Shown in pieces: positions 39,089 through 64,000 of a DNA stretch of 64,000 nucleotides. Position numbers and translations under genes: made by a program. Location of the stretch: positions 25,450-89,449 of the forward strand of contig CAMHSJ010000006.1 in assembly GCA_946187935.1 (NCBI GenBank), given 5' to 3'. The notes under the pieces are model-generated. The model saw nothing but the letters and a program-made list of their open reading frames with translations, was not told where the DNA came from and searched no databases. This DNA comes from an uncultured Clostridia bacterium (GTDB taxonomy: Bacteria > Bacillota > Clostridia > Saccharofermentanales > Saccharofermentanaceae). Numbering within the stretch: position 1 is the first letter of the stretch; each line of letters opens with the position of its first letter.

Positions 39089-39138
39089 TCTTAAGGGGAA
39101 TTGTCAGAACTTTGTTTTATTAGTTAAATTCAGGTGAT

Positions 39139-39175
39139 TAACCCCGTTGCTCCTTTTTTGCGGCGGGGTTAATTG
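39139..39175 (+). terminator. Intergenic stem-loop between the two GH94 genes
   Basis: ATTAACCCCGTTGC-N9-GCGGCGGGGTTAAT; extended -10 TGTTATAAT immediately downstream. Confidence 0.55.
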
Positions 39176-39212
39176 TTATAATTTCGGTATAAAGCTTAGG
39201 AGGTACCTAATT

Positions 39213-42213: not shown

Positions 42214-43143
42214 ATGCCTTTCTCAAGTGTCTTTCTTTCTGAAGTAGTCAAGGCGTTCAACTTAGAGGTCGTATACGATTCAGAGGATATAAACGAGCGA
42301 AGGCTCCTTGTTGCCGACTGTACAAGGCCGGGACTCCAGCTTGCAGGTTACTACGAGCACTTCGGTCCTGACCGTATACAGATCATAGGCAACATGGAGC
42401 ACGCATATCTGGATCACTTAGAGCCTGAGCAGCGTTATGAATCCGTCTCTGCGCTCTTCGCCAAGAAGATCCCCGCGGTGGTCATTACACGTGACCATAA
42501 GGTGCACAAGGAGATCCTTGATGCAGCCAAGGAGTACAAGACTCCGATCCTGCGCACTAACCAGGCAACTTCAGATTTTTCAGCTGAGCTCGTCAAGTAC
42601 CTTAAGATGGAGCTCGCTCCCAGGGTCTCGATGCACGGTGTTCTTGTAGAGGTCTATGGTGAAGGTATCCTCATCCTGGGTGAGTCAGGCGTAGGTAAGT
42701 CTGAGACCGCTCTCGAGATAGTTAAACGCGGCAACCGCCTCATAGCAGACGATCAGATCGAGATCAGAAAGGTTTCAGAGACGACTCTTGTAGGACGTGC
42801 ACCTGAGGTTATCCGCCATCTTATCGAGATAAGAGGCATCGGCATCCTGGACGTAAAAGAGCTCTACGGCGTATCTTCCGTCAAGCAGCAGGAAGCCATC
42901 GACTTCGTAATAAACCTGGAGCTCTGGGACGAGAAGAAGACATACGACAGATTAGGCTTAAGCGATGAGACGACAGAGATACTCGGCATCAAGGTCCCCT
43001 CAGTCACTATCCCTGTAGGACCCGGACGCAACCTCGCGATCATCGTCGAAGCGGCAGCAATTAACTACAGAGTCAAGAAGATGGGCTATAACGCAGCCCA
43101 GAACCTTGTCTCAAGAGTATTCCCGGGGTCACCTCTTGAATAA
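42214..43143 (+). CDS. hprK: HPr(Ser) kinase/phosphorylase
   Basis: RPGLQLAG, HGVLVEVYGEG, GESGVGKSE, LIADD, EIRGIGI, GRNLA. Confidence 0.97.
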   Translation: MPFSSVFLSEVVKAFNLEVVYDSEDINERRLLVADCTRPGLQLAGYYEHFGPDRIQIIGNMEHAYLDHLEPEQRYESVSALFAKKIPAVVITRDHKVHKEILDAAKEYKTPILRTNQATSDFSAELVKYLKMELAPRVSMHGVLVEVYGEGILILGESGVGKSETALEIVKRGNRLIADDQIEIRKVSETTLVGRAPEVIRHLIEIRGIGILDVKELYGVSSVKQQEAIDFVINLELWDEKKTYDRLGLSDETTEILGIKVPSVTIPVGPGRNLAIIVEAAAINYRVKKMGYNAAQNLVSRVFPGSPLE

Positions 43144-44035
43144 GCTTAATATAACTGAACATGTTTCACTGAAGAAATACACGACATTCCGCTGCGGAGG
43201 TGAGGCGAGATTCTTCGCTGAGCCTTCGAGCTTTGTCGAGGTCTCTGACCTTCTGGCATTTGCATCTTCAGAGTCAATGCCTGTTTTTGTAATGGGCATG
43301 GGTTCTAACATCCTGGTTTCCGATTCAGGCTTTGACGGACTGGTCATAAGGCTTGGCAGGAACATGGGCGAGATCTCGCTTATGGATACGGGAGATTCAT
43401 CTTTTGAGATAGACTGCGGAGCGGGAGCCCCTCTGGCGCTTCTGGGAAACCTCGCTGTCAAGGAAGGCCTTGAGGGCTGTGAGTTCTGCTGCGGTATCCC
43501 GGGTTCTGTCGGCGGCGGCGTATTCATGAATGCAGGCGCTTACGGCAGGGAGATCAAGGATATAGCAGTATCTGTTACTTATCTTGAGGCCGGCGAAGTT
43601 AAGACCGTGCCTGCTTCCTCATGTGAGTTTGGCTACAGAAAGAGCATATTTACCAAAGGCGATTCCGTTATCTTAGGTCTTAAGGTAAGGCTTGATAAGG
43701 GAGATGCTTCCGCAATAAGGGCTTATGCTGAAGAGCTCAGGGTCAAGAGAGCTAACAGTCAGCCCATAGATGTCCCTTCTGCAGGTTCCACGTTCAAGAG
43801 ACCTGAGGGTTATTTTGCAGGCAAGCTCATCCAGGACTGCGGCCTCAAGGGCTTTGCATTAGATGATTCCGGCGCGCAGGTCTCACCGAAGCATTCGGGC
43901 TTTATCGTAAATAACGACGGCAGGGCGAGCGCTAAGGACGTATACAGGCTTATAATGTACGTGTCTGATACTGTTTTCGGGAAGACAGGGGTCAGATTAG
44001 AGCCCGAAGTCAGGCTCATAGGCGATTTTTCTTAA
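43106..44035 (+). CDS. murB: UDP-N-acetylenolpyruvoylglucosamine reductase
   Basis: TFRCGG, G.GSNILVSD, GIPGSVGG..MNAGAYG, YRKS, SAGSTFKRP, KHSGFIVN, LEPEV; true start may be TTG 43136. Confidence 0.95.
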   Translation: MSQEYSRGHLLNKLNITEHVSLKKYTTFRCGGEARFFAEPSSFVEVSDLLAFASSESMPVFVMGMGSNILVSDSGFDGLVIRLGRNMGEISLMDTGDSSFEIDCGAGAPLALLGNLAVKEGLEGCEFCCGIPGSVGGGVFMNAGAYGREIKDIAVSVTYLEAGEVKTVPASSCEFGYRKSIFTKGDSVILGLKVRLDKGDASAIRAYAEELRVKRANSQPIDVPSAGSTFKRPEGYFAGKLIQDCGLKGFALDDSGAQVSPKHSGFIVNNDGRASAKDVYRLIMYVSDTVFGKTGVRLEPEVRLIGDFS

Positions 44036-44051
44036 AGATTAGAGGCATTAT

Positions 44052-44942
44052 ATGGAACTTATCTTCCTTACGGGCATGAGCGGTGCCGGCAAGACGCAGG
44101 CAGTCAATTTCCTCGAGGATTCGGGATTCTTTTGTATGGACAACTGTCCTCCTTACATCCTGCCTGACCTTGTAAACGGCTTTATCAAGGGTACGGGCGG
44201 CGAGAATTTCGGTATCAGCAAGCTTGCATTCGTGGTCGACTGCAGGTCCAGGGAATTCCTTGACGGATTCGAAGATGCGATGTCCGAGATCGACAGGATG
44301 GGTCTTGTATACAAGATCGTCTTTTTGGAAGCCTCAGACCCCGTGCTCATCGGAAGATACCAGCAGACAAGAAGAAAGCATCCTCTGGCAGGCAAGATGT
44401 CTCTTACCGACGCGATCCGCGAGGAGAGATCGATGCTCACCAACATCAGGGCGATGGCGGATAACGTAATAGACACAACGCTCCTTAACGATTACATGTT
44501 AAGAGAGCAGTTAAAGCGCCTGATCCTGGAAGACACGAGCTCGGGGCTGTCGGTCTTTATCGAATCCTTCGGCTTTAAGTACGGGCTTCCCGTCGACTGC
44601 GATTATGTGTTCGATGTCAGGTTCCTTCCCAACCCCTACTATGTGCCTGAACTTAAGAACCTTACGGGTGAGGACGAGGCGATCGGCGAATACCTTAAGG
44701 GCTTCCCTGAATCAGATGAGTTTATCTCCAAGACATCTGACATGCTCGAATACACCATCCCTTTCTTCATGCGCGAAGGCAAGGGCAGGGTACATGTCGG
44801 CATAGGCTGTACGGGCGGAAGGCACAGATCCGTCTACTGCGCCATCAACCTGAGCGAAAAGCTCAAGTCCCTGGGCTTTAATGTGGTATTGAACCACAGG
44901 GACATAGGCAAGGAAGAGAAAAGGTATTCCCAGGACACCTAA
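44052..44942 (+). CDS. rapZ: RNase adapter / P-loop protein RapZ (YvcJ)
   Basis: TGMSGAGKT, DNCP, RRKHPL, SFGFKYG.P, FDVRFLPNP, GCTGGRHRSV. Confidence 0.96.
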   Translation: MELIFLTGMSGAGKTQAVNFLEDSGFFCMDNCPPYILPDLVNGFIKGTGGENFGISKLAFVVDCRSREFLDGFEDAMSEIDRMGLVYKIVFLEASDPVLIGRYQQTRRKHPLAGKMSLTDAIREERSMLTNIRAMADNVIDTTLLNDYMLREQLKRLILEDTSSGLSVFIESFGFKYGLPVDCDYVFDVRFLPNPYYVPELKNLTGEDEAIGEYLKGFPESDEFISKTSDMLEYTIPFFMREGKGRVHVGIGCTGGRHRSVYCAINLSEKLKSLGFNVVLNHRDIGKEEKRYSQDT

Positions 44943-44943
44943 C

Positions 44944-45768
44944 ATGAAGGAAACAAGTTTCTCAGTCAGGATCAAGCAGGACATAACAAGGTCTGTGCCG
45001 TCTGATGGAAAGCTCAGGCAGGCCGAGATAACAGGGCTTACAGCAGCTTCGTCTTCTTTCGAGATAAAGTTCATATTAGAGATCAAGGACCATATAGTTG
45101 AGCTTCTTGCCAAAGAAGGGATAGAGTTCAGGGTTTCAGGCAACAAGATAGAGATCGCCCCGGCCGGAAGGAGCCTTCTCAGTCTTAATACCAATATGGA
45201 AGATCCTTCTTATGCCGAATACTTCGTAAGGGGACTGTTCCTGTCTTCAGGGTACTGCTCTGATCCCAATAAGGGCTACCGCATCGAATTCCACATTTCA
45301 AGAGATGAGACGGTCATGCTGCTTACGGGGATATTAGGTCTCTGGGACATTACGCCTGTGATAAAGCAGCGCGAAGGATTTACCGCACTCTATTTTAAGG
45401 CAGGCGACATGGTGTCCGATTTCCTGGGACACATAGGCGCGACGGGAGCGATGCTGGATTTCGAGAACATAAGGGTCTCCAAGGATATCAACAACTCCGT
45501 TGTACGCCGTGTCAACTGTGATGCCGGAAACTTCAAGAGGCAGTCTGATGCAGGCGCTGCTAGAAATGCCCTTATCAAGAAGCTCCTTGATTCAGATCTC
45601 AGGTATAAGCTTACTCCTGACCTTCTGGAGGCTGCCAAAGCGCACATGGATAACCCGGGTGCATCCATTGCGGAATTAGGACAGATGATGGATCCTCCCA
45701 TAGGCAAATCCGGGATGAGCCACAGACTTAAAAAGCTTGTGGAACTCGCTGAGAGCCTTCAGGACTGA
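44944..45768 (+). CDS. whiA: DNA-binding protein WhiA
   Basis: RGLFLSSG..SDP...Y.IEF, LYFK, R.VNCDAGN, HTH SIAELG.MMDPPIGKSG..HRL. Confidence 0.92.
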   Translation: MKETSFSVRIKQDITRSVPSDGKLRQAEITGLTAASSSFEIKFILEIKDHIVELLAKEGIEFRVSGNKIEIAPAGRSLLSLNTNMEDPSYAEYFVRGLFLSSGYCSDPNKGYRIEFHISRDETVMLLTGILGLWDITPVIKQREGFTALYFKAGDMVSDFLGHIGATGAMLDFENIRVSKDINNSVVRRVNCDAGNFKRQSDAGAARNALIKKLLDSDLRYKLTPDLLEAAKAHMDNPGASIAELGQMMDPPIGKSGMSHRLKKLVELAESLQD

Positions 45769-51838: not shown

Positions 51839-53004
51839 TGGACTTGGCTATCAAGAGTAACATGTACGACAGATCCTGTGTTGAGATAGATCTCAGCGCT
51901 CTTGAGCATAATTTCAGGGAGATCAGGCGGGTCACAAAAGAAGGCGCGGACATAATGGCAGTCGTCAAGGCTGACGCATATGGCCACGGCGCCCTTGAGA
52001 TAGCTGAAGTGCTTCTTAAGTCAGGAGCTTCAGGACTCTGTCTTGCCACTATAGACGAAGCAGTGGAACTCAGGCAAAGAGGCATCACTGCTCCCATGAT
52101 GACATTAGGATATACGGATATAAGCCGCGTAGAAGACGCTGTCAGATTTGACGTCGACCAGGCGGTCTATTCATATGAGACGGCCAGGGCCATTTCAGAT
52201 GAAGCGGTCAGGCAGGGCAAGAGCGCGAGGGTGCATGTCAAGCTCGACACGGGAATGGGAAGGATAGGTTTTCCCGCAGACGGATCTTCAACAGACGAGA
52301 TCCTTAAGGCGGTAAGCCTGCCCGGCATAATCCCCTATGGCGTTTTCTCGCATTTCGCAGTGGCTGACACTGATGACGATGAGTATACCCGCAGGCAGTT
52401 TGACATGTTCATGAAGCAGGTAAATGAGCTCGAAGACAAGGGCATAAAGTTTACCAAAAAGCACATCTGCAACAGCGCAGGGATAATGAGATTCCCCGAG
52501 ATGCACCTTGATATGGTCAGGGCGGGCATAATCCTTTATGGCCTCATGCCGCCCGGATGCCCCGAGCCGAAAGAGAAGATAGACCTCATACCCGTAATGA
52601 CATGGTATGCCAAGGTCATCCACGTCAAGAACGTGCCCGAGAACACTTCCGTAAGCTACGGCAGGCACTTTGTATCCAACAGGCCGAGCGAGATAACGAC
52701 AGTTGGCATAGGTTATGCAGACGGCCTCTCAAGAAGGCTCTCTGACGGTTTTGAGCTCATAATAGGAGGAGAGAGATGTCCTATTGCAGGCAATGTCTGC
52801 ATGGACATGTGCATGGTCGATACGACTGACCTTAAGGTCAGGCCCAAGGTCGGCGACGAGGTGATCGTCTTCGGCAAGGAAAGATCTGCAGATGAATTAG
52901 CAGACAGGATAGGCACCATTAATTACGAGATAACTTGCGATGTCGGCAAGAGGGTCAAGAGGCTCTATATTAAAGACGGCGAAATACAAAATTACGGAAG
53001 GTAG
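51838..53004 (+). CDS. alr: Alanine racemase
   Basis: MAVVKADAYGHG, HVKLDTGMGRIG, FSHFA, NSAG, VRAGIILYG, GYADG, CMD, TINYEI. Confidence 0.97.
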   Translation: MDLAIKSNMYDRSCVEIDLSALEHNFREIRRVTKEGADIMAVVKADAYGHGALEIAEVLLKSGASGLCLATIDEAVELRQRGITAPMMTLGYTDISRVEDAVRFDVDQAVYSYETARAISDEAVRQGKSARVHVKLDTGMGRIGFPADGSSTDEILKAVSLPGIIPYGVFSHFAVADTDDDEYTRRQFDMFMKQVNELEDKGIKFTKKHICNSAGIMRFPEMHLDMVRAGIILYGLMPPGCPEPKEKIDLIPVMTWYAKVIHVKNVPENTSVSYGRHFVSNRPSEITTVGIGYADGLSRRLSDGFELIIGGERCPIAGNVCMDMCMVDTTDLKVRPKVGDEVIVFGKERSADELADRIGTINYEITCDVGKRVKRLYIKDGEIQNYGR

Positions 53005-53008
53005 GCTT

Positions 53009-53860
53009 ATGACACAGGAAAGAAAAAAGCAGCTGCAGCTATTTGCTGCCAAAGTCCGCAGATGGGTAATAGAGGGCGTTTACAGCGCCAAGAGCGGACA
53101 TCCGGGCGGATCTTTGTCATGCACGGATATATTGACGTACATCTATAACGAGAGATTGGGCGTTACTCCCGAGACGGCAGATGAGGCTTCAAGAAACAGG
53201 TTCGTGCTCTCTAAGGGACACTGCGCTCCTGCGCTCTATGCGACTTTGGGCCTTCTCGGATTCTTTGATATAGAAGAGATGAAGAGATTAAGGAACATCG
53301 ATTCTTTCCTTCAGGGCCATCCCTGCAAGCAGTACACACCCGGCATTGACATGTCCACAGGTTCTCTTGGCCAGGGCATCTCAACTGCATCGGGCATGGC
53401 GATAAATGCCAAGTATCTCGACAAGACAAACTACAAGGTCTATACGATCTTAGGCGACGGCGAGATGCAGGAAGGCGAGGTATGGGAAGCTCTCATGAGC
53501 TCGGCTCACTATAAGCTCGACAACTTCTGCGTTATCTTAGACAACAACGGTCTTCAGATCGACGGCAAGGTCGACGATGTCATGAGCCTCGGCGACATAG
53601 AAGCGAAGGCCAGGGCCTTTGGTTTTGAGACAAGAGTCATTGACGGTCACGACTTCGATTCCATAGAAAAGGCAATGAACGATTTTGATGCCAACATGGG
53701 ATCAGGCAAGCCTTTCTTCATCGTATCAAAGAGTCACAAGGGCCAGGGCGTGTCATTCATGACAGACAATCCCGGCTGGCACGGCAAGGCTCCGAGCGAT
53801 GAGGAGTATAAAACGGCAGTTTCCGAATTAGATGCTGCGATCAAGGCTTTGGAGGGTTAA
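53009..53860 (+). CDS. Transketolase, N-terminal (ThDP-binding) subunit
   Basis: SGHPGGSLS, FVLSKGH, LQGHP, GSLGQG, GDGEMQEG..WE; start ATG 53009. Confidence 0.94.
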   Translation: MTQERKKQLQLFAAKVRRWVIEGVYSAKSGHPGGSLSCTDILTYIYNERLGVTPETADEASRNRFVLSKGHCAPALYATLGLLGFFDIEEMKRLRNIDSFLQGHPCKQYTPGIDMSTGSLGQGISTASGMAINAKYLDKTNYKVYTILGDGEMQEGEVWEALMSSAHYKLDNFCVILDNNGLQIDGKVDDVMSLGDIEAKARAFGFETRVIDGHDFDSIEKAMNDFDANMGSGKPFFIVSKSHKGQGVSFMTDNPGWHGKAPSDEEYKTAVSELDAAIKALEG

Positions 53861-53864
53861 TGAT

Positions 53865-54812
53865 ATGAGCGATATGGCAACAAGAGATGCATACGGCAAG
53901 GCCCTCGTTGAGTTCGGAGGCGATGAGAAGATCGTTGTAATGGACGCCGATCTTTCAGGCTCGACCAAGACGGGTGATTTTAAGAAGGTCTATCCTGACA
54001 GATTCTTTAACATGGGAATAGCAGAAGGCAACATGATGGCTACCGCTGCAGGTATCGCCACCTGCGGCAAGACGGTCTTCTGTTCCACCTTCGCGACTTT
54101 CGCATCAGAAAGACCGTTAGAGCAGATCAGGAACTCCATCTGCTACCCTAACTTAAATGTAAAAGTCTGCGCTACTCATGCGGGACTTACGGTCGGTGAG
54201 GACGGAGCTTCGCACCAGTGCTTGGAGGACATGGCTGTGATGAGAGCTATCCCCAACATAAGAGTCATCTGTCCTTCAGACGGCGCTTCCACGAGAATGG
54301 CGATAAAGGCTGCGATAGAAGAGGACGGCCCGTTCTACATAAGGCTCGGCAGAGCCAAGGTGCCTTCAGTTTACGGCGAGTTCGGTGAAGACATCCCGTT
54401 TACCGTCGGCAAGGCAAACACTCTTAAGGACGGCCTTGATCTTACCATCATCGCATGCGGCATCATGGTAAAGACCGCTCTTGAGGCTTATGCCATCTTA
54501 AAAGAAGAGGGCATAAATGCCAGGGTCATAGACATGCATACTATAAAGCCCATCGATAAGGATGCGGTAGTAAAGGCATCTAAAGATACGGGGCTCATCG
54601 TCACGGCAGAAGAGCATACCATTAACGGCGGGCTCGGCAGCGCAGTCTGCGAAGTCGTCTGTGAGGCTGCTCCCTGTCCCGTCAAGAGATTCGGCATCAA
54701 GGACAAGTTCGGCAAGTCAGGAACGCCCAAGGCTCTGCTTGAAGCTTACCACCTCACATCAGAAGATCTCGCCAATGAATGCAGGAAGGCATTAAGAGAA
54801 TCAAAGGGCTGA
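53865..54812 (+). CDS. Transketolase, C-terminal subunit
   Basis: DADL.GST, GIAE.NM, GEDGASHQ, YIRLGR, DMHTIKPID, EEH..GGLG; start ATG 53865. Confidence 0.94.
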   Translation: MSDMATRDAYGKALVEFGGDEKIVVMDADLSGSTKTGDFKKVYPDRFFNMGIAEGNMMATAAGIATCGKTVFCSTFATFASERPLEQIRNSICYPNLNVKVCATHAGLTVGEDGASHQCLEDMAVMRAIPNIRVICPSDGASTRMAIKAAIEEDGPFYIRLGRAKVPSVYGEFGEDIPFTVGKANTLKDGLDLTIIACGIMVKTALEAYAILKEEGINARVIDMHTIKPIDKDAVVKASKDTGLIVTAEEHTINGGLGSAVCEVVCEAAPCPVKRFGIKDKFGKSGTPKALLEAYHLTSEDLANECRKALRESKG

Positions 54813-55976: not shown

Positions 55977-55991
55977 GTTCTGAAAACAGAG

Positions 55992-56101
55992 AGATCCTGT
56001 TTTGGTGACGAGATCCTTATTTCAGCAACAAAAACAGCACTCCGGGCATTTCTTTACATGATTTGTTGCGAAACGCTTCGGATCTGGCAACAAAACAGGA
56101 A
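55992..56101 (+). repeat. Dispersed intergenic repeat, copy B, imperfect palindrome
   Basis: Arms TCCTGTTTTGGTGACGAGATC and GATCTGGCAACAAAACAGGA; colinear with 45774-45863 reverse. Confidence 0.65.
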
Positions 56102-56256
56102 TAACAGGGTCGTGATCCGTGAAGGACCTCAAAAAGTCGTGGCCACCTTGGGAGAGGCGGCCACAAATATGGGGATAATAGGAATAGAAAAATGTCTTTA
56201 TCAATGGCATCATTGTAGAGGACTTTTACGAATTAATCAACTAAATTCTTTTGTTA

Positions 56257-56268
56257 TTTTTTTTTTTT
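56257..56268 (+). repeat. T12 homopolymer upstream of glycan-locus promoter
   Basis: Counted directly; TATAAT at 56310 and 56339 downstream. Confidence 0.8.
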
Positions 56269-56375
56269 CATTTTCGTAACTGGCCTTTTTGCCCCCTGAA
56301 CGCCCATATTATAATTAGGAAAAGGCCAAGACCTGCGGTATAATCAGTGTGCCTATACATACAACGGAGGGATCA

Positions 56376-59099
56376 ATGCCGGGCCGCTCAAAACTCGATA
56401 AAAAGAGAGGATATCTTCTTTATACCGCGATATTCGCGATTCTCTTCGCTCTATGTTTCTTCATAAGGCTCGTTTTGCTGATGCACAGATCCCCAATAAG
56501 AAGATCCGACGGACTTGAGCAGCACTTTATATGCTTCGTGCTCGTCGGAAGATGGATAAGGTCATTGTTTACGGGCTCCTTTGGGATGTGGAGCGATTCA
56601 ATGGGACTTGGCGGCGATATGTTCACATCGATGTTCGGCGCTTTTACCGATCCCATGTACTGGCTGTCGGCACTTGTTCCCGAGCGCTATGCCGAGTATG
56701 TTTTCGACTTGATGATCGTTCTCAAGGTGTACCTGTCGGGACTGAGCTTCATGGCATTCTGCTTCTTCCGCAAGAATAAGGTCTGGCCGTCTCTTGCAGG
56801 CGCCATAGTCTACACTTTCAGCGCATCGATGTACCTGGCGTTCTTCGAGTCCGTCTGTATCAGCTGGATGTACGTTCTTCCGATCCTCATGATAGGCACG
56901 ATAAGGCTCTGGGAGAAGAATAAGCCCGGACTGTTCATAGGAGCCCTCACATTTACCTTCATAAGCCAGTTCTACTTCGGCTACATGTGCGCGATGGTGG
57001 TCCTGGGCTACTGCATAGTAAGGGCGGTAATCGAACTTCTCGAAAAGAAGGAGACCTTCAAGGCGATACTCATGAAGGCCTTGAGGTTCATGCTGTTTGC
57101 GGGCCTTTCGGTAGGCATGGCAACGGTAAGCTTTTTGCCCGTGATAAAGCTTCTTATTGCTTCAGACAGGAGAGGCGTCGAATACTACATGCCTGTCCTT
57201 TACGACGCAAGATACTACTGCGCCTTCCTGGCAGGCTTTTCGAGCTATTTCAACATGCTCGGAAGGGACTGCTATCTGGGATTCTCCGTTGCCGCGCTGG
57301 TATGTGTTATCGCTTTATTCCTGCTGGGTAAGGGCAGGGGAGTCTTAAAGGCGGGATTCGTTCTTCTTACAGTGGGGCTCTGCGTGCCGTTCATAGGGCA
57401 TGTCATGAACGTCATGAGCTATCCTTCCAACAGATGGGTATGGGCATATGTTATGTGCGTATCCTACATAGTTACCGTAACGCTGCCGGGACTTGGCGAT
57501 CTGTCATGGGCCAAAAGAGGGATCCTTCTTGCCATATGCGCCGTATATGGTTATTTCTCCTGGACTCTTAACGACGGCTTTGCGCCGGGCGCTGAATATA
57601 CATACATGAGGCCTGAGTTCTACAAGCTTGCGGGCATAGGCGTATTTGCCATAGCTTTATTGCTGCTGCTCACATCCTGCTTCTTTAAGAAAGCGTACCC
57701 TTATACCGCGGTCACGCTGATCGGCATTTCAGTCATTATCCCTGCTTACATAACATTCCATCCCGAGAAGAGAAACCTGTTCGGAGATGAGATCCACGCC
57801 ACTACCGCATATGAGAAAGTAATAGACGGCGGCCTTACGGATGCTGCCAAGACGGCTGATCCTTCTGACGGCGAGAGGATGGAGGCATTTGGCATCTATA
57901 ACGTAAGAAATGCCACCTGGGTGACAGGCGTAAACAGCACGGACTTCTACATGAATGTCTGCAACAACTACGTTGAGAGCTTCATGAGGGAAGTGGGACT
58001 TGCCAAGAGCCCCTGGGCAGGCGGATACACGAGCTTCGATTCCAGGGCTGAGCTTGAAGCACTGATGGGTATAAACTACGTCGTAACTCCTGCCGATAAC
58101 TTTAACTCCGTGTCTTTTGGATATGATCAGGCGGGCACTGACGTTTATATCCATGATGCGGATGCCGTTATCCATCCTTCAGTCCTGGGTACGCATTCCA
58201 TCGCAAGCTTTATGGATAAGTCGATCTCATATGAGGATTACCTCACACTTGATATGCAGCAGAGACAGCAGGCTCTCATGCAGGCAGTGGTAGTGGATGG
58301 CGGATATGCCGATTCTTCCGTTAAAGATCTTGATATCTCTGATGACACAGTTGAGTGGACCATTGAAAGCCTGGATGGTTTAAGGAAGTTAGATGACGGA
58401 TTTGTCGCTGATATCGGTCAGGCATCGATGGTAATAAGCATGGATACGGTAAGGAACGCTAATCTCTATGTCGCAATAGAAGGATTAGACTTTGACAATG
58501 GTCACGATCTTGATGCCGAGCTGTTCTTTACGGCCGTATCAGATGAAGGCGAAGACATCTATACCAGAAACCGCTGGTTCATCAATAACAGGAACCACAT
58601 GTACGGCGGCATCACCGACTGGATAGTAAATCTCGGAAGTGTAACTGAGGACTGCTCTAAGATCCGCGTCGTATTCTCAAGACCCGGCACATACAAGATC
58701 ACATCGATAAAGATCTATGCAAGGGATATCGACCTTGGCGCTTCAGATATTTCAGCCCTTGATATGGCTGCGTCCCCATCTGATATCTCTTTTGATCAGC
58801 GCAGGAATACATACTCCATGCACATAGACAGCGATAAGGATCAGTATCTGTTCCTTGCCATTCCTTACTCAGAAGGCTGGACTATGACTGTCAATGGAGA
58901 GAAGACGGACATCTTAAGAGCCGATACCGGATTTATGGCAGTATACCTTAAGCCGGGCTCTTATGATATATTATTAAAATATAAGACTCCCGGTCTTACA
59001 GCCGGTCTTGGCATCAGTCTCTTAAGCGCCATTTTGTGTGCCGGTGTGATCTTTTGGGAGAAAAAAACTGTTAAACAGGGGAAGGTAGCTGACAAATGA
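56376..59099 (+). CDS. YfhO-family polytopic membrane glycosyltransferase (GT-C)
   Basis: DGLEQH first-loop motif, KVYLSG, GAIVYTFS, SQFYFGYM, C-terminal IPYSEGW..TVNG...I.RADTGFMAV.L..G; start ATG 56376 after GGAGG. Confidence 0.88.
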   Translation: MPGRSKLDKKRGYLLYTAIFAILFALCFFIRLVLLMHRSPIRRSDGLEQHFICFVLVGRWIRSLFTGSFGMWSDSMGLGGDMFTSMFGAFTDPMYWLSALVPERYAEYVFDLMIVLKVYLSGLSFMAFCFFRKNKVWPSLAGAIVYTFSASMYLAFFESVCISWMYVLPILMIGTIRLWEKNKPGLFIGALTFTFISQFYFGYMCAMVVLGYCIVRAVIELLEKKETFKAILMKALRFMLFAGLSVGMATVSFLPVIKLLIASDRRGVEYYMPVLYDARYYCAFLAGFSSYFNMLGRDCYLGFSVAALVCVIALFLLGKGRGVLKAGFVLLTVGLCVPFIGHVMNVMSYPSNRWVWAYVMCVSYIVTVTLPGLGDLSWAKRGILLAICAVYGYFSWTLNDGFAPGAEYTYMRPEFYKLAGIGVFAIALLLLLTSCFFKKAYPYTAVTLIGISVIIPAYITFHPEKRNLFGDEIHATTAYEKVIDGGLTDAAKTADPSDGERMEAFGIYNVRNATWVTGVNSTDFYMNVCNNYVESFMREVGLAKSPWAGGYTSFDSRAELEALMGINYVVTPADNFNSVSFGYDQAGTDVYIHDADAVIHPSVLGTHSIASFMDKSISYEDYLTLDMQQRQQALMQAVVVDGGYADSSVKDLDISDDTVEWTIESLDGLRKLDDGFVADIGQASMVISMDTVRNANLYVAIEGLDFDNGHDLDAELFFTAVSDEGEDIYTRNRWFINNRNHMYGGITDWIVNLGSVTEDCSKIRVVFSRPGTYKITSIKIYARDIDLGASDISALDMAASPSDISFDQRRNTYSMHIDSDKDQYLFLAIPYSEGWTMTVNGEKTDILRADTGFMAVYLKPGSYDILLKYKTPGLTAGLGISLLSAILCAGVIFWEKKTVKQGKVADK

Positions 59100-59872
59100 A
59101 GGTAGTACTTCTTGCAGGCGGTTTCGGCACGAGGTTTGCCGAGCAATCCGAATACAGACCCAAGCCTATGATCGAGATCGGAGGCATGCCGATCCTCTGG
59201 CACATAATGAAGGAATACTCCTACTACGGATTTAATGATTTCATAATCTGCGCAGGCTATAAGCAGCACATCATCAAGGAGTGGTTTGCCGATTATTTCC
59301 TCTACACGTCAGATGTTACTTTTGATTTCACGCAGGACAACAAGATGATCGTCCACAACAAGCGTGCCGAGCCCTGGAAGGTAACGGTCGTTGATACAGG
59401 TCTTCACACCATGACGGGCGGACGTATCAAGAGGATCGCTCCTTATGTCGGTAACGAGACCTTCATGATGACTTACGGCGACGGCGTCTGCGACGTTGAT
59501 ATTGCAGAACTTGCGAAGTTCCATAAAGAGCACGGCAAGATAGCTACCCTTACTGCAGTCAAGACGAAGCAGGATAAGGGCGTTCTCGATATCGTAGGCA
59601 ATACCGTACAGTCCTTCAGAGAGAAGAACGCGGCAGACGGCTTCCCGATCAATGCGGGTTATATGGTCTTCGAGCCCGGCATCTTCGATTACATCGAAGG
59701 CGATGATACTGTCCTTGAGAGGGCTCCTCTCGAGAAGCTCGCGAATGACGGTGAGCTCATGAGCTATATCCACGAAGGATTCTGGCAGTGCATGGATACA
59801 CAGCGCGAGCAGACCCTCCTTAACAAGTATCTTGAAACAGGCCACGCTCCGTGGAAGAAGTGGGAAGACTGA
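59096..59872 (+). CDS. rfbF: Glucose-1-phosphate cytidylyltransferase
   Basis: LAGGFGTR, KPMIEIG, DTG..TMTGGRIKR, TYGDGV, FWQCMDT. Confidence 0.96.
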   Translation: MKVVLLAGGFGTRFAEQSEYRPKPMIEIGGMPILWHIMKEYSYYGFNDFIICAGYKQHIIKEWFADYFLYTSDVTFDFTQDNKMIVHNKRAEPWKVTVVDTGLHTMTGGRIKRIAPYVGNETFMMTYGDGVCDVDIAELAKFHKEHGKIATLTAVKTKQDKGVLDIVGNTVQSFREKNAADGFPINAGYMVFEPGIFDYIEGDDTVLERAPLEKLANDGELMSYIHEGFWQCMDTQREQTLLNKYLETGHAPWKKWED

Positions 59873-59875
59873 CAT

Positions 59876-60961
59876 ATGGTTGATCTTAGCTGGTATAAAG
59901 GCAGGAAGGTCCTCATAACGGGACACACGGGATTTAAGGGAACGTGGCTTACAAGGATGCTCTTAAACGCAGGAGCCATCGTTACGGGCTACAGCTTAAC
60001 GCCTCCTACGGATCCTTCTCTTTTCGAGATGAGCGGAGTGGAAGACAAGATAACTCACGTAACAGGTGATGTCAGGGACATTGATCACATGCAGAAGGTG
60101 TTTTCTGAGACAGAGCCTGAGATCGTTCTGCACCTGGCTGCCCAGCCTATCGTAAGGGATTCATATAAGGATCCCAGATACACATACGAGACCAATGTCA
60201 TGGGTACGGTTAACCTCCTTGAGTGTGTAAGGAATACCCCTTCAGTTAAGAGCGTAGTAAATGTTACGACAGACAAGGTCTACCTCAATGAGGAAAGACA
60301 GGAAGGCTACAGGGAAGATGAGAAATTAGACGGCTTTGATCCCTATTCCAACTCCAAGAGCTGCAGTGAGCTCGTTACGCATTCCTACAAGAGGAGCTTC
60401 TTTACACCCGATATGGAGAAAGGCATAAGGACAGTTGCGGTATCTACAGCAAGAGCGGGCAACGTCATCGGCGGCGGCGATTTTGCGAACGACCGCATAG
60501 TTCCCGACTGCGTCAGGGCCGTATCAGCAGGAAAGAAACTCGAGGTCAGGAACCCTTATTCCGTAAGACCTTATCAGCATGTATTAGAGCCGCTCCTGGT
60601 TTATCTTACGATAGCAATGAAGCAGGAGATCGATCCTTCTTACCAGGACTACTATAACGTCGGACCTAATGACGAAGACACCGTTACCACGGGCGAGTTG
60701 GCAGACCTGTTCAAGTCATGCTGGGGCGAAGGCTTTGACTGGGAGGACAAGTCCGAAGCCGATGCACCTCACGAAGCAGGCCTTCTGAGGCTCAACTGCG
60801 GCAAGATCAAGAAGGTCTTCTCCTGGAAGGCAACATGGAATATCGAAGAGGCGATAAGAAAGACCGTAGAATTCTCAAGGGTCTATCTTGACGGAGGAGA
60901 CATCCCCTGTGAGATGGACAGGCAGATAAATGAATTTTTGAAGGAGGCCACATATGGCTGA
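59876..60961 (+). CDS. rfbG: CDP-glucose 4,6-dehydratase
   Basis: TGHTGFKGTWL, HLAAQPIVR, TTDKVY, DPYSNSK, ARAGNVIGGGD, RPYQHVLEPL, PHEA. Confidence 0.97.
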   Translation: MVDLSWYKGRKVLITGHTGFKGTWLTRMLLNAGAIVTGYSLTPPTDPSLFEMSGVEDKITHVTGDVRDIDHMQKVFSETEPEIVLHLAAQPIVRDSYKDPRYTYETNVMGTVNLLECVRNTPSVKSVVNVTTDKVYLNEERQEGYREDEKLDGFDPYSNSKSCSELVTHSYKRSFFTPDMEKGIRTVAVSTARAGNVIGGGDFANDRIVPDCVRAVSAGKKLEVRNPYSVRPYQHVLEPLLVYLTIAMKQEIDPSYQDYYNVGPNDEDTVTTGELADLFKSCWGEGFDWEDKSEADAPHEAGLLRLNCGKIKKVFSWKATWNIEEAIRKTVEFSRVYLDGGDIPCEMDRQINEFLKEATYG

Positions 60962-62294
60962 ATGGACAAGCGAAGAGCAGGCAAGAGAACAGATCAAGGC
61001 GCTGGTAGCTGATTACTACCACGACTTTAAGGAGAATAAGAAAGAGTTTAAACCGGGCGACCGCGTTAACTACGCATCCCGCGTTTTTGACGAGAAGGAG
61101 ATGATGAGCCTTACTGATGCGATGCTGGATTTCTGGCTTACGACAGGCAGGTTCTCTGATAAGTTTGAAAAGGATTTTGCGTCTTGGATCGGCGTTAAGT
61201 TCGCACACCTCGTAAACTCGGGTTCTTCTGCAAACCTTCTTGCATTCATGGCGCTTACGGCTCCTGAATTAGGAGATAGGCAGATCCTCCCCGGTGATGA
61301 GGTCATCACTGTTGCGGCAGGTTTCCCTACGACAGTTACACCTGTTCTGCAGTACGGAGCAGTTCCTGTCTTCGTTGACGTTACTATCCCTCAGTACAAC
61401 ATAGATGTAACTCAGCTTGAGTCTGCGCTTTCTCCCAAGACAAAGGCCGTCATGATCGCCCATACTCTGGGCAATCCGTTCGACCTCAAGGCTGTAAGAG
61501 AGTTCTGCACAAAGAATAACCTCTGGCTCGTTGAGGATAACTGCGATGCATTAGGATCAAGATACACTATAGACGGCGAGACCAGGTTCACCGGTACATG
61601 GGGCGATATCGGAACTTCATCTTTCTATCCTCCGCACCACATGACGATGGGCGAGGGCGGCTGCGTTTACACAAATAACCCGCTGCTCAATAAGATGATC
61701 CTCTCCTACAGGGACTGGGGAAGAGACTGCATCTGCCCTTCAGGAAAAGATAATTTCTGCGGCCACAGATTTGACGGTGACTACGGACAGCTCCCTCACG
61801 GATACGACCACAAGTATGTTTACAGCCACTTCGGCTACAACCTCAAGGTTACTGACATGCAGGCAGCAGTAGGATTAGAGCAGCTCGTTAAGTTTCCTTC
61901 GTTCATCGAGAGAAGAAAGCACAACTGGGCAAGGCTCAAGGCGGCGCTCGCGCCCGTATCAGACAAGATCATCCTCCCCGAGCCTGCTGAAGGCAGCGAT
62001 CCTTCATGGTTCGGCTTCCTCATCACAGTACCTGAAACTTCAGGCAAGACAAGAAATGAAGTCACGAGATATATCGAGGATCACAACATCCAGACAAGAC
62101 TCCTGTTCTCAGGCAATCTTACGAGGCACCCATGCTTTGATCAGATAAGAGGCACGGATAAGTACAGGGTCATAGGTGATCTTAAGAATACCGACTACAT
62201 CATGAACAACACATTCTGGGTCGGCGTATATCCCGGAATGACAGATGAGATCATCGACTACATGGCTAAGATCATCATAGAGGCAGTTGGCTGA
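60954..62294 (+). CDS. rfbH: CDP-4-keto-6-deoxyglucose 3-dehydrase (E1, DdhC)
   Basis: VNSGSSANL, EDNCDALG, SFYPPHH (His in place of the PLP Lys), WGRDC.C..G.DN.C Fe-S motif, HKYVYSH.GYNLK. Confidence 0.95.
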   Translation: MAEWTSEEQAREQIKALVADYYHDFKENKKEFKPGDRVNYASRVFDEKEMMSLTDAMLDFWLTTGRFSDKFEKDFASWIGVKFAHLVNSGSSANLLAFMALTAPELGDRQILPGDEVITVAAGFPTTVTPVLQYGAVPVFVDVTIPQYNIDVTQLESALSPKTKAVMIAHTLGNPFDLKAVREFCTKNNLWLVEDNCDALGSRYTIDGETRFTGTWGDIGTSSFYPPHHMTMGEGGCVYTNNPLLNKMILSYRDWGRDCICPSGKDNFCGHRFDGDYGQLPHGYDHKYVYSHFGYNLKVTDMQAAVGLEQLVKFPSFIERRKHNWARLKAALAPVSDKIILPEPAEGSDPSWFGFLITVPETSGKTRNEVTRYIEDHNIQTRLLFSGNLTRHPCFDQIRGTDKYRVIGDLKNTDYIMNNTFWVGVYPGMTDEIIDYMAKIIIEAVG

Positions 62295-62297
62295 TAG

Positions 62298-63239
62298 ATG
62301 AAGGCTATTGTTACCGGCGCAACAGGAATGCTCGCGATAGCGACGATAAACTGCCTGACAGATTCAGGCTATGAAGTCATCGCCATTGTAAGACCGGATT
62401 CAGCCAGGATCGATAACGTTCCGGTAAGTGACAAGGTAACTGTGATAAGCCTTGACATGGCAAATATCAATGAACTTCCGGACATCCTTAAGTCAGAAGG
62501 GTTGGATTCTGACATCAAGCTGTTCTTCCACTTTGCCTGGGACGGCACGCATGGCGATTCCAGGAACAACATGGATATCCAGACAGAGAATATCAAGACT
62601 TCCATAGAGGCTGTAAGAGCTGCGGGAAGACTTGGATGCGAGGCTTTCCTGGGAGCAGGCTCCCAGGCTGAGTACGGCAGGGTCAAAGATGGAACAAAGC
62701 TTGCGCCTGATACCCCCGCATTCCCTGAGAACGGTTACGGCATCGGCAAGCTCACGGCAGGCCTCATGACAAGGATAGAAGCTAAGAAGTATAACATGCG
62801 CCACATCTGGGTGCGCATCTTAAGTGTCTACGGGCCTTTTGACGGGATGCACACCATGGTCATGAGCGGCATCGGAAATATGCTCGAAGGCAAAAAAGCA
62901 AGTTATACCAAGGGCGAACAGCTTTGGGATTATATCTATGCCAAGGATGCGGCAAGAGCATTTGTCCTGGCAGCCGAAAAGGGCAGGGACGGAGCAGTCT
63001 ATCCCATCGGTTCAGGCAATGTAAGACCTTTAAGAGACTACATAACTGACATAAGGGATGCTGTAAATCCCGGCGTGCCCATTGGATTTGGCGAAGTAGA
63101 ATATTACCCCGGACAGGTTATGTATCTTTGTGCAGATATATCTTCGCTTACCAAGGACACGGGTTTTGTTCCGGAGTATACTTTTGAGCGCGGCATCAGG
63201 GAAACAGTTGAATGGTACAAGGAGCACTATTTAAAATGA
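62298..63239 (+). CDS. NAD-dependent epimerase/reductase (candidate CDP-3,6-dideoxyhexose 4-reductase)
   Basis: TGATG, GSQAEYG, YGIGK (YxxxK), SVYGP, WDYIY..D.A. Confidence 0.85.
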   Translation: MKAIVTGATGMLAIATINCLTDSGYEVIAIVRPDSARIDNVPVSDKVTVISLDMANINELPDILKSEGLDSDIKLFFHFAWDGTHGDSRNNMDIQTENIKTSIEAVRAAGRLGCEAFLGAGSQAEYGRVKDGTKLAPDTPAFPENGYGIGKLTAGLMTRIEAKKYNMRHIWVRILSVYGPFDGMHTMVMSGIGNMLEGKKASYTKGEQLWDYIYAKDAARAFVLAAEKGRDGAVYPIGSGNVRPLRDYITDIRDAVNPGVPIGFGEVEYYPGQVMYLCADISSLTKDTGFVPEYTFERGIRETVEWYKEHYLK

Positions 63240-64000
63240 AGAAGATAAGCGTACTCATACCATGCTTTAATGAGCAGGAAAATGTAGAGCCGATGGCAGA
63301 AGCCGTTAAGAATATTTTCGAGACCGAGCTTCCCGAATACGATTATGAACTGCTGTTCATAGACAATGACTCGACTGACCTGACAAGACCCAAGCTCAGG
63401 AAGATCTGCGAGGAGAACCCCAAGGTCAAGGCTATCTTCAATGCCAAGAACTTCGGTCAGTTCAACTCGCCTTACTATGGCCTTTATCAGACAACGGGTG
63501 AGTGCACCGTCTCCATGTGCTGCGACTTTCAGGACCCGGTTGAGATGATCCCCAAGTTCGTAAAAGAATGGGAGAACGGCTATAAGATAGTCTGCGGCAT
63601 CAAGGCGACATCCAAGGAAAACCCCATAATGAGGGCTCTTAGGACCATGTACTACAAGCTCATCAAGAAGATGAGCTCGGTAGAGCAGATAGAGCATTTT
63701 ACGGGCTTCGGCCTTTACGATAAGTCCTTCATCAAGGTCTTAAAGGACCTCAAGGACCCCACTCCGTTCCTTAGAGGCATCGTTGCGGAGTTAGGATACC
63801 GCCGCAAGGATCTTACTTACGAGCAGCAGAAGAGAAGGGCCGGCAAGACCCATAACAACTGGTATTCCTTATACGATGCGGCAATGCTGAGCTTCACTTC
63901 ATACACCAAGGTGGGTTTAAGGATCGCGACCATCGGAGGCTTCATCCTCTCGGCATTGTCCATGCTCGTTGCAGTCATCTATACGATCTTAAAGCTCTGC
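63236..64000 (+). CDS. GtrB-like GT2 polyprenyl-phosphate glycosyltransferase, truncated by window end
   Basis: Not in ORF track; ATG 63236 (ATGA overlap) reads MKKISVLIPCFNEQENV...FIDNDSTD...NFGQ...CDFQDP...TGFGLYD...PFLRG...GKT, entering a TM helix at window end. Confidence 0.88.
   Translation, partial: MKKISVLIPCFNEQENVEPMAEAVKNIFETELPEYDYELLFIDNDSTDLTRPKLRKICEENPKVKAIFNAKNFGQFNSPYYGLYQTTGECTVSMCCDFQDPVEMIPKFVKEWENGYKIVCGIKATSKENPIMRALRTMYYKLIKKMSSVEQIEHFTGFGLYDKSFIKVLKDLKDPTPFLRGIVAELGYRRKDLTYEQQKRRAGKTHNNWYSLYDAAMLSFTSYTKVGLRIATIGGFILSALSMLVAVIYTILKLC

Follow-up and report, generated by a model that had tools for sequence, protein, structure and literature searches.

Can a sugar activated as a CDP-3,6-dideoxyhexose be carried to the cell surface on undecaprenyl phosphate (Und-P)? 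This question is raised by the end of a 64,000-nt stretch of DNA from an uncultured Clostridia bacterium (the window), where rfbF, rfbG and rfbH lie in one run with genes for the membrane glycosyltransferase YfhO, an oxidoreductase of the short-chain dehydrogenase/reductase (SDR) family and a GtrB-type glycosyltransferase of family 2 (GT2). Three-component glycosylation by GtrB, GtrA and a GT-C enzyme is regarded as a process that uses UDP-sugars and serves hexoses and N-acetylhexosamines (HexNAc). The features of the window were read from the list of its open reading frames (ORFs) with their translations and from Pfam and NCBIfam profile matches (Table 1). Taken together, the sequence data render it likely that the operon makes a CDP-3,6-dideoxyhexose, loads it on Und-P and transfers it outside the cell. 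The core of the first-pass annotation, namely that a CDP-derived dideoxyhexose enters a GtrB/GtrA/GT-C lipid-carrier route, is supported by a gtrA gene downstream, by the full-length homology of the GT2 to GtrB and ArnC, by the linkage to rfb genes and by an Asn signature in the GT2.

Table 1. Features of the operon and its leader (positions in the window unless contig L001 is named).
Feature	Product or description	Position	Strand	Profile match or remark
leader before yfhO	non-coding, ~400 nt	55977-56375	+	ribosome-binding site GGAGGG 56366-56371; T-run ~56253-56266; hairpin 56137-56166
yfhO	GT-C-type membrane glycosyltransferase, 907 aa	56376-59099	+	PF09586, E 4e-82
rfbF (ddhA)	glucose-1-phosphate cytidylyltransferase	59096-59872	+	TIGR02623 equivalog, 360 bits vs cut-off 300
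rfbG (ddhB)	CDP-glucose 4,6-dehydratase	59876-60961	+	TIGR02622 equivalog, 420 bits vs cut-off 278
rfbH (ddhC, E1)	pyridoxamine-phosphate- and [2Fe-2S]-dependent CDP-6-deoxy-4-hexulose 3-dehydrase	60954-62294	+	NF011936, 712 bits vs cut-off 423
SDR gene	extended SDR, NAD(P)-dependent oxidoreductase, 313 aa	62298-63239	+	PF01370, PF16363; no equivalog model
GT2 gene	GtrB-type GT2	63236-64000 (first 255 of 314 codons); rest from L001 1503-2447	+	PF00535
gtrA	GtrA, 186 aa, 4 hydrophobic segments	L001 4511-5071		PF04138, E 4e-17; beyond window

All six genes of the run that had been read as yfhO-rfbF-rfbG-rfbH-reductase-gtrB-like at 56376-64000 were found there on the same strand, and they are translationally coupled. 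ATGA overlaps join yfhO to rfbF (59096-59099) and the SDR gene to the GT2 gene (63236-63239), and gaps of 3 nt separate rfbF from rfbG and rfbH from the SDR gene. The pattern of ATGA overlaps or gaps of at most 3 bp that had been described for the run holds for these four junctions; it does not for rfbG and rfbH, which overlap by 8 nt (60954-60961) and are coupled all the same.

An exact-protein look-up of the SDR yielded three metagenome contigs that are ~98.5% identical to the window over its last kilobase. Past the window end, these contigs carry, in this order, the complete GT2 gene (314 aa), a gene for a 417-aa Wzx-like protein, licD (PF04991), gtrA (PF04138) and rpmH-rnpA. A promoter that fits the sigma-70 consensus perfectly precedes rpmH. 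Given this gene order up to rpmH-rnpA, the operon consists of nine genes, yfhO-rfbF-rfbG-rfbH-SDR-GT2-wzx-like-licD-gtrA, and ends beside the chromosomal origin region. The flippase that was expected beyond the window is thus encoded there, with gtrA located 2.5 kb past the window end. The rfbE gene, which was to be looked for downstream together with gtrA, is absent from the locus, comprising the window and the near-identical downstream contigs.

RfbF, RfbG and RfbH each score above the curated NCBIfam equivalog cut-off, and the names first given to them stand. RfbH is ~60% identical to the Yersinia enzyme E1 (3BCX; E 1.8e-156, aligned residues 6-439) and keeps His-His where aminotransferases have Lys. 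It likewise keeps the Cys residues of the unusual [2Fe-2S] site, with Cys259, Cys261 and Cys269 forming the C-X-C-X7-C pattern and Cys197 as the upstream Cys. Apart from the reductase E3, which is discussed below, the steps up to CDP-4-keto-3,6-dideoxyglucose are well founded. In the translation of the SDR, the motifs GxxGxxA and YxxxK are readable, and its closest solved proteins are dTDP-glucose dehydratases and a GDP-6-deoxy-4-hexulose reductase. We propose that the SDR is the ketoreductase that would finish the CDP-sugar, acting on ring C-4 or on a side-chain carbonyl. The cluster genes all appear to be under purifying selection, as the ratio of nonsynonymous to synonymous substitutions (dN/dS) determined against the related locus L005 ranges from 0.04 to 0.12 and amounts to 0.08 for the SDR.

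The linkage between these genes was followed by a scan for the GT2 with one genome per species. The scan returned 400 relatives, of which the best 80, being 67-96% identical, were taken. ORFs were called in all loci and compared with the window proteins, the remainder was clustered, and counts were made on the 47 loci with complete 10-kb flanks. The best 80 are mostly labelled Lachnospiraceae, Ruminococcaceae, Acutalibacteraceae and other Clostridia, several records being labelled Bacteroidales/Bacteroidaceae, Treponema, Coriobacteriaceae or Anaerovoracaceae. Closest are metagenome-assembled genomes from the rumen that bear the name Mageeibacillus or Saccharofermentans. Among the 47 loci, rfbH and the SDR gene are each present in 43, rfbG in 40, rfbF in at least 37 and GtrA in 28. 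A large polytopic protein is encoded in 34/47; where identified, these proteins are interchangeable GT-C enzymes, namely YfhO, GtrII (PF14264), PMT_2 or GT87, which are spread over Lachnospiraceae, Ruminococcaceae, Acutalibacteraceae and further groups. One locus (L030) consists of the minimal module rfbF-G-H-SDR-GT2-gtrA. As judged from these gene contents, the sugar pathway, the GT2 and the flippase stay constant and the GT-C enzyme changes, which is the pattern expected of a three-component system in which the last enzyme would set the acceptor.

The best NCBIfam models for the GT2 are PgfS (156 bits, full length) and ArnC, both far below the equivalog cut-offs. By sequence, the closest solved structure is Synechocystis GtrB (5EKE; residues 3-304 aligned, E 8e-39), and residues 1-305 align to ArnC (9HWJ, E 8e-25). 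The full-length protein (L001) has two hydrophobic helices within its final 90 residues, and these align with the transmembrane helices of GtrB. We propose that this full-length homologue of GtrB and ArnC acts as a CDP-sugar:Und-P transferase.

The donor site of the GT2 departs from that of its characterised homologues at two positions. At the first, D-N-D-S in this GT2 stands against (N/D)-D-G-S in GtrB, ArnC, Listeria GtlA and an enzyme from a Lactococcus plasmid. The residue at issue, Asn44, aligns to D48 of ArnC, which forms a hydrogen bond with UDP in the structure determined by cryo-electron microscopy, and it is Asn in 81/81 orthologues. Of the 150 nearest representatives of 50%-identity clusters, drawn from 1.8 billion proteins, 133 could be aligned, and 125 of these likewise have Asn at this position. 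Therefore, the Asn-type GT2 enzymes form a large subfamily. The second departure concerns the motif DADLQ(D/N/H), where DADLQ here reads C-C-D-F-Q. The metal ligands D97 and Q99, which correspond to the second Asp and the Gln of the motif, are kept, and the first Asp of the DXD is replaced by Cys95 in 77 of the 81 orthologues, by Ala in three and by Val in one. The motifs D-N-x-S and M-C-C-D-F-Q-D-P are invariant in the orthologues apart from this first DXD position, which varies in 4/81. D94 of GtrB aligns to Cys and D157 of GtrB to Gly in this family. On the basis of these alignments, the RfbH-linked GT2 family appears to be a divergent branch of the polyprenyl-phosphate glycosyltransferases.

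Does the Asn go along with CDP-sugar genes outside the Clostridia? The GT2 was searched against 72,556 plasmids, and 20 loci encoding homologues with 25-38% identity were inspected. The motif was read from the alignment, and rfbF and rfbG were sought within 10 kb by tblastn and annotation. All six loci with D-N-x-S have both genes within this distance. In Methylovirgula pHY1 (L090), GtrA-GT2 lies beside a split transketolase, rfbH, SDR, rfbG and rfbF, and in Roseibium (L091) the order is GtrA-GT39-rfbF-rfbG-aminotransferase-methyltransferase-SDR-GT2. The other four are Legionella adelaidensis (L092), Ensifer adhaerens (L093), Novosphingobium humi and Palleronia (L098). GtrA, a GT-C enzyme of the GT39 family or both are annotated nearby in all four annotated Asn loci. 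The canonical Asp is present at 13 loci, namely Listeria GtlA, Lactococcus, Cupriavidus, Rahnella gtrAB, Photobacterium, Pseudobutyrivibrio, Phyllobacterium, Priestia (GT2-GtrA-YfhO), Shinella, L. plantarum, Monoglobus, Novosphingobium MBES04 and Solidesulfovibrio, and none of them has rfbF and rfbG. The twentieth locus, from Variovorax, was not scorable. For the 6 Asn and 13 Asp loci an exact test of the association yielded p ~4e-5, a value that overstates the independence of the plasmid loci, since the alphaproteobacterial clusters are partly related.

The loss of the first DXD Asp is distributed differently. Both the clostridial family and Methylovirgula, which have RfbH, show it, as does N. 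humi. The Asp is kept in Roseibium, Legionella, Ensifer and Palleronia, where the match to RfbH is weak (28-34% identity); at the position of this match an aminotransferase is annotated in Roseibium and Palleronia. As these four CDP-linked proteobacterial homologues keep the Asp, its loss was rejected as a marker of CDP use; it may instead track 3-deoxygenation or 3-deoxy donors. Three of these four plasmid loci are annotated, and they show a methyltransferase, an oxidoreductase and GtrA near rfbF/rfbG. These four proteobacterial loci look as if they encode three-component glycosylation with an amino or methyl 6-deoxy sugar derived from a CDP-sugar.

The broadest form of this proposal is that the switch from Asp (ArnC D48) to Asn (Asn44) defines a large, cross-phylum and hitherto undescribed GtrB-type subfamily that uses CDP- instead of UDP-sugars, and that in gut and rumen Clostridia it feeds 3,6-dideoxyhexoses and C4-acyl-branched sugars onto Und-P for surface decoration. 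We consider the case for and against this generalisation to be evenly balanced.

The branched sugars enter the picture through genes that the window lacks. In 42 of the 47 loci, the cluster contains an acetolactate-synthase-like (YerE-like) thiamine diphosphate (ThDP) enzyme, usually encoded directly ahead of the SDR. An HMGL-type enzyme with 4-hydroxy-2-oxovalerate aldolase as best model is also found in 16 of these 42, and a HAD phosphatase in some loci. In the closest relatives (L004 5602-9063, likewise L005 and L006), a 543-aa HMGL-type protein and a 606-aa ThDP enzyme are encoded between rfbH and the SDR gene, whereas in the window this interval comprises 3 bases only, and no homologue of either gene is present in the 64 kb. 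Because the ThDP enzyme, with or without the aldolase, is encoded alongside rfbH and the SDR, a branched product is predicted for the relatives; their usual product is probably a C4-branched yersiniose- or erwiniose-like dideoxy sugar, this species being a branch-less variant. Yersiniose and erwiniose are built from the same 4-keto intermediate by YerE/YerF and ErwI/ErwE/ErwF, respectively (PMC9306805), and the occurrences named for sugars of this type are Gram-negative O-antigens and mycobacterial glycolipids. We have not seen the ErwI/ErwE-like pattern for C4-acyl-branched 3,6-dideoxy sugars reported from Clostridia. Moreover, to our knowledge, sugars of this type are not known to travel on Und-P.

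Two loci from different phyla, L018 (7212-9013) and Methylovirgula pHY1 (L090, 9973-11726), contain a split transketolase pair instead of the single-chain ThDP enzyme, and this pair may be an alternative branch-installing enzyme. The window also encodes a split transketolase (52940-54812), 1.5 kb upstream of yfhO and 34-38% identical to the two cluster-embedded pairs. It was considered as a substitute branching enzyme and set aside: its halves together score above the cut-off of the transketolase model, which the cluster-embedded pairs do not, and in view of this better fit it is probably a housekeeping enzyme.

Several observations weigh against a dideoxyhexose route through the GT2, in addition to the partial relatedness of the plasmid clusters. 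One of them is that this family has lost the Asp at the start of the DADLQ motif, a residue proposed to be the catalytic base of GtrB and ArnC and called universally conserved in recent papers; catalysis would have to differ in this family, or activity could be impaired. Another concerns expression, for which there is only a weak sign, since the one run labelled RNA that holds contigs of the locus may contain carried-over DNA.

A further point concerns the electron supply of RfbH. In a crude motif test for E3 (RfbI/DdhD/AscD), neither the operon nor the 64-kb window nor any of ~100 related loci showed an ORF that combines the plant-type 2Fe-2S motif with RxYS, and E3 was likewise not seen in Pfam scans of the cluster genes. 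The classical Salmonella and Yersinia pathway requires E3, and if 3-deoxygenation by RfbH stayed unfinished without it, the product would be a 6-deoxy or 4-keto-6-deoxy hexose derivative. We regard this as very improbable, because the conserved Fe-S Cys and His residues of an enzyme so close to Yersinia E1 would be pointless without electron transfer. Moreover, SpnQ, a homologue of E1, works with general ferredoxin or flavodoxin reductases, and in relatives RfbH is accompanied by YerE-like enzymes, which are known to act on the 3,6-dideoxy-4-keto sugar. Since no E3 is encoded and SpnQ provides a precedent, we infer that a housekeeping ferredoxin or flavodoxin system is the electron donor of RfbH.

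The remaining points concern the SDR. Its specificity is not given by any model or homologue: no equivalog was found, homologues bear only the generic name 'NAD(P)-dependent oxidoreductase', and the solved matches are only dehydratase and reductase folds. Equivalogs of RfbJ, RfbS or RfbE are absent from the locus. In addition, the window SDR nests in a clade of the SDR tree whose other members come after a ThDP enzyme, and it may have lost its usual substrate. The pathway could then be incomplete: with the ThDP enzyme and the aldolase gone, the SDR would be left without a side-chain substrate, and the operon would deliver the 4-keto-3,6-dideoxy intermediate, another sugar or nothing useful. 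This explanation, for which the gene order of the closest relatives and the lack of both genes in the window also speak, is unlikely in our view. Every ORF is intact and the coupling is tight, rfbH, the SDR gene and the GT2 gene have dN/dS values of 0.04-0.08, and several samples taken independently from cattle and sheep show the same gene order. The rfbH/SDR junction and the remainder of the run are spanned by contigs of independent gut runs, bovine and ovine, so that the arrangement is not an assembly artefact. Moreover, loci that lack the ThDP enzyme and keep SDR and GT2 are scattered on the SDR tree (the window; L008 with L020; L030; L049). They arose several times, and this repeated origin argues for a functional short version of the pathway. 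We conclude that the product in this species is probably an unbranched 3,6-dideoxyhexose, with a partly disabled pathway as the main rival.

The two genes between the GT2 gene and gtrA offer other destinations for the sugar. The 417-aa protein has no Pfam match of its own, and the annotations of its homologues name exporters of O-antigen or teichoic acid. Superposition of its AlphaFold (AF2) model (mean predicted local confidence, pLDDT, 88.7) on WzxE, the flippase of lipid III, gives a TM score of 0.71-0.73, which at the level of the model confirms a Wzx fold. A Wzx-fold flippase gene directly after the GT2 gene could mean that the sugar enters a Wzx-dependent repeat unit linked to undecaprenyl diphosphate (Und-PP), in the style of O-antigens or teichoic acids, rather than the single-sugar Und-P route. 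Downstream Wzx/Wzy genes had been named beforehand as a possible account of the sugar, and of these only the Wzx-like gene is there: up to gtrA the locus contains no initiating phosphoglycosyltransferase, no Wzy or other polymerase, no ligase and no further Leloir glycosyltransferase. Furthermore, the Wzx-like gene is found in only 2/47 loci and forms a recurrent pair with licD, also apart from rfb genes, as in Butyrivibrio fibrisolvens (L084). The Wzx/Wzy route was rejected because its partner genes are absent from the locus, and it is the explanation we hold least probable of all.

LicD bears on a further explanation, according to which GT2, GtrA and YfhO use an ordinary UDP-sugar and the CDP-dideoxy sugar goes to LicD for sugar-1-phosphate transfer or to an unlinked cytoplasmic glycosyltransferase, for instance one acting on flagellin. 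The characterised GtrB-type enzymes all use UDP- or GDP-sugars, the LicD family uses CDP-linked donors and has one member in the operon, and a flagellar route has been predicted for CDP-paratose in Clostridium butyricum. However, LicD is encoded in only 4/47 loci, as opposed to the near-universal linkage of the GT2 to rfb genes, and elsewhere it is accompanied by its own activating genes, either choline kinase and cytidylyltransferase or TarI/TarJ. On account of this rarity and of its CDP-choline- or CDP-ribitol-type partners, LicD was rejected as the main consumer of the CDP-sugar. As the change from Asp to Asn, moreover, correlates with rfbF/rfbG neighbours and is absent from UDP-type members, a UDP-sugar donor for the GT2 is quite unlikely. 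We read LicD and the Wzx-like protein as an added module for a phospho-substituent; that the Wzx-like protein flips a LicD-modified lipid-linked sugar is speculation.

In Murimonas intestini, a cultured member of the Lachnospiraceae, rfbF-G-H, a ThDP enzyme, SDR, GT2 and a 763-aa GT87 enzyme lie in one run (L086/L087 392-14469), which continues with a Wzx-like protein, TarI, TarJ, LicD and ribulose-phosphate epimerase and has no GtrA. This locus suggests that ribitol-phosphate addition is tied to the same lipid-linked sugar, and the organism looks like a good experimental model.

Returning to the preferred route, in which a CDP-3,6-dideoxyhexose is loaded on Und-P, the following sequence of steps can be envisaged. 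RfbF would produce CDP-glucose, which RfbG would convert to CDP-4-keto-6-deoxyglucose. RfbH (E1) would then take off the 3-hydroxyl group, presumably with electrons from the housekeeping ferredoxin or flavodoxin system, and the SDR would reduce the remaining keto group to yield the CDP-3,6-dideoxyhexose. The GtrB-type GT2, with Asn in place of the UDP-contacting Asp, would move the sugar onto Und-P, and GtrA, perhaps helped or replaced by the Wzx-like protein, would flip the lipid-linked sugar. At the outer face, YfhO would finally transfer it to a wall polymer or a surface protein. The identities and coupling of the genes, the flippase gene downstream, the conserved linkage and the donor-site signature with its correlation are observed directly in the sequences; that the GT2 takes a CDP-linked donor, where the electrons come from, which stereochemistry the sugar has, which protein is the flippase and what the acceptor is are inferred from them.

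The last enzyme, YfhO, matches positions 6-835 of the 835-position PF09586 profile with its residues 21-881 and contains 11 hydrophobic segments by a crude hydropathy count. It is 66-67% identical to the yfhO products of L004 and L005, with a dN/dS of 0.12, and a sequence search for a solved homologue returned none.

Taken together, the operon is a variant of a known mechanism and not a new mechanism. CsbB/GtcA/YfhO of B. subtilis and GtlA/GtcA with GtlB or Lmo1079 of L. monocytogenes (PMC5836110, PMC7389260) belong to the same GtrB-type GT2, GtrA and YfhO families, the GT2 there too having two C-terminal transmembrane helices. The shared logic, as in Listeria teichoic-acid glycosylation, is that the cell produces a C55-P-sugar on the inside, flips it and transfers the sugar on the outside. 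These systems differ in that they transfer N-acetylglucosamine or galactose from UDP-sugars and their operons lack a sugar-nucleotide pathway; at the donor site, GtlA has N-D-G-S and D-A-D where this GT2 has D-N-D-S and C-C-D. The Pgf system of Streptococcus mutans (PgfS, PgfE, PgfM1, PgfM2) and GtrB/PgtC2 of S. pyogenes (PMC11092751), which serve the O-glycosylation of proteins, are similarly close, with PgfS as the best model of the GT2 and PgfM1/M2 as the sole NCBIfam matches of the YfhO protein, although every Pgf score stays far under its equivalog cut-off. The Pgf operon likewise joins a nucleotide-sugar-modifying enzyme, a GT2 and YfhO-type enzymes, but in the streptococcal systems the donors are UDP-HexNAc or UDP-glucose, and Ser/Thr-rich regions of proteins serve as acceptors. 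The GtrA-GtrB-GtrC(II) systems by which Shigella and Salmonella phages glucosylate O-antigen and Synechocystis GtrB (5EKP; PMC12698845) use UDP-glucose and have an intact DADLQD motif; GtrII-type enzymes (PF14264) replace YfhO in many of the orthologous clostridial loci.

For the sugar pathway, the models are Salmonella rfb and Yersinia ddh, which lead to abequose, paratose, tyvelose and ascarylose. RfbF, RfbG and RfbH are clear equivalogs here, while E3 and any RfbJ, RfbS or RfbE equivalog are missing. In enterobacteria, a cytoplasmic Leloir transferase puts the CDP-sugar on an Und-PP-linked O unit instead of loading it on Und-P. ArnC/ArnT, which handles Und-P-L-Ara4FN, offers a likeness to the operon as a whole, since a dedicated modified-sugar pathway likewise leads to a polyprenyl-phosphate GT2 and on to a GT-C enzyme; the donor is UDP-linked there, with D48 contacting UDP where this GT2 has Asn, and lipid A is the acceptor. 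YerE/YerF and ErwE/ErwF/ErwI (PMC9306805) compare with L004-L006 and Murimonas intestini, where a ThDP enzyme is followed by the SDR, often with an aldolase; the window lacks both the ThDP enzyme and the aldolase.

The statement that no characterised example is known was upheld in that literature searches found no prior description. They were directed at a dideoxyhexose together with teichoic acid or Clostridia and at CDP-glucose together with GtrA, one broad search being uninformative; no paper naming both CDP-glucose and GtrA was found in the literature searched. A paper of 2024 on three-component systems treats GtrB-type enzymes as UDP-sugar users and describes an extension to pentofuranoses with a different charging enzyme (PMC11127046). 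A prediction of 2026 places CDP-paratose genes in a flagellar glycosylation island of Clostridium butyricum, with a cytoplasmic route.

In front of the operon, the ATG start codon of yfhO is preceded by the GGAGGG motif, and the leader contains a GC-rich hairpin with a 12-bp stem. An Rfam scan of the whole window gave no match, hence no known riboswitch or leader lies ahead of yfhO. Scans of the + strand of the locus for promoter and terminator consensus sequences did not exceed the shuffled expectation, and no convincing sigma-70 consensus was seen. The genes upstream are unrelated housekeeping genes (alr, the split transketolase and a gene for an Mbeg1-like protein). Contigs from three runs, representing co-occurring strains, part from the window near 56198, just downstream of the leader hairpin, and this boundary of the locus may be a strain-variable junction.

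Elsewhere in the window, two adjacent genes of the GH94 family (36599-42200) encode an 829-aa protein resembling cellobiose/cellodextrin phosphorylases and a divergent 1017-aa protein. They lie downstream of a sugar ABC transporter, and the gene in between (33950-36031) encodes a DUF4012 protein of 693 aa that is anchored in the membrane at its N-terminus. An 816-aa ABC permease (30511-32961) matches BPD_transp_1 only in its last ~230 residues, and its ~550-aa N-terminal extension is largely hydrophilic and without a family match. The genes at 42214-45768, named by eye from their translations, we take to be an hprK-murB-rapZ-whiA block.

If a CDP-sugar-specific branch of GtrB exists, it would represent a new donor class for three-component glycosylation, and D-N-x-S would be a simple sequence marker predicting the donor nucleotide. 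The loss of the first DXD Asp in the RfbH-linked members would provide a natural test of the catalytic base proposed for GtrB and ArnC, and direct testing is possible in the cultured carriers Murimonas intestini, Eubacterium album and Maccoyibacter intestinihominis. In Salmonella and Yersinia, 3,6-dideoxy and branched sugars are strongly immunogenic epitopes. If the proposal is true, many abundant gut and rumen Clostridia would display 3,6-dideoxy or branched dideoxy sugars.

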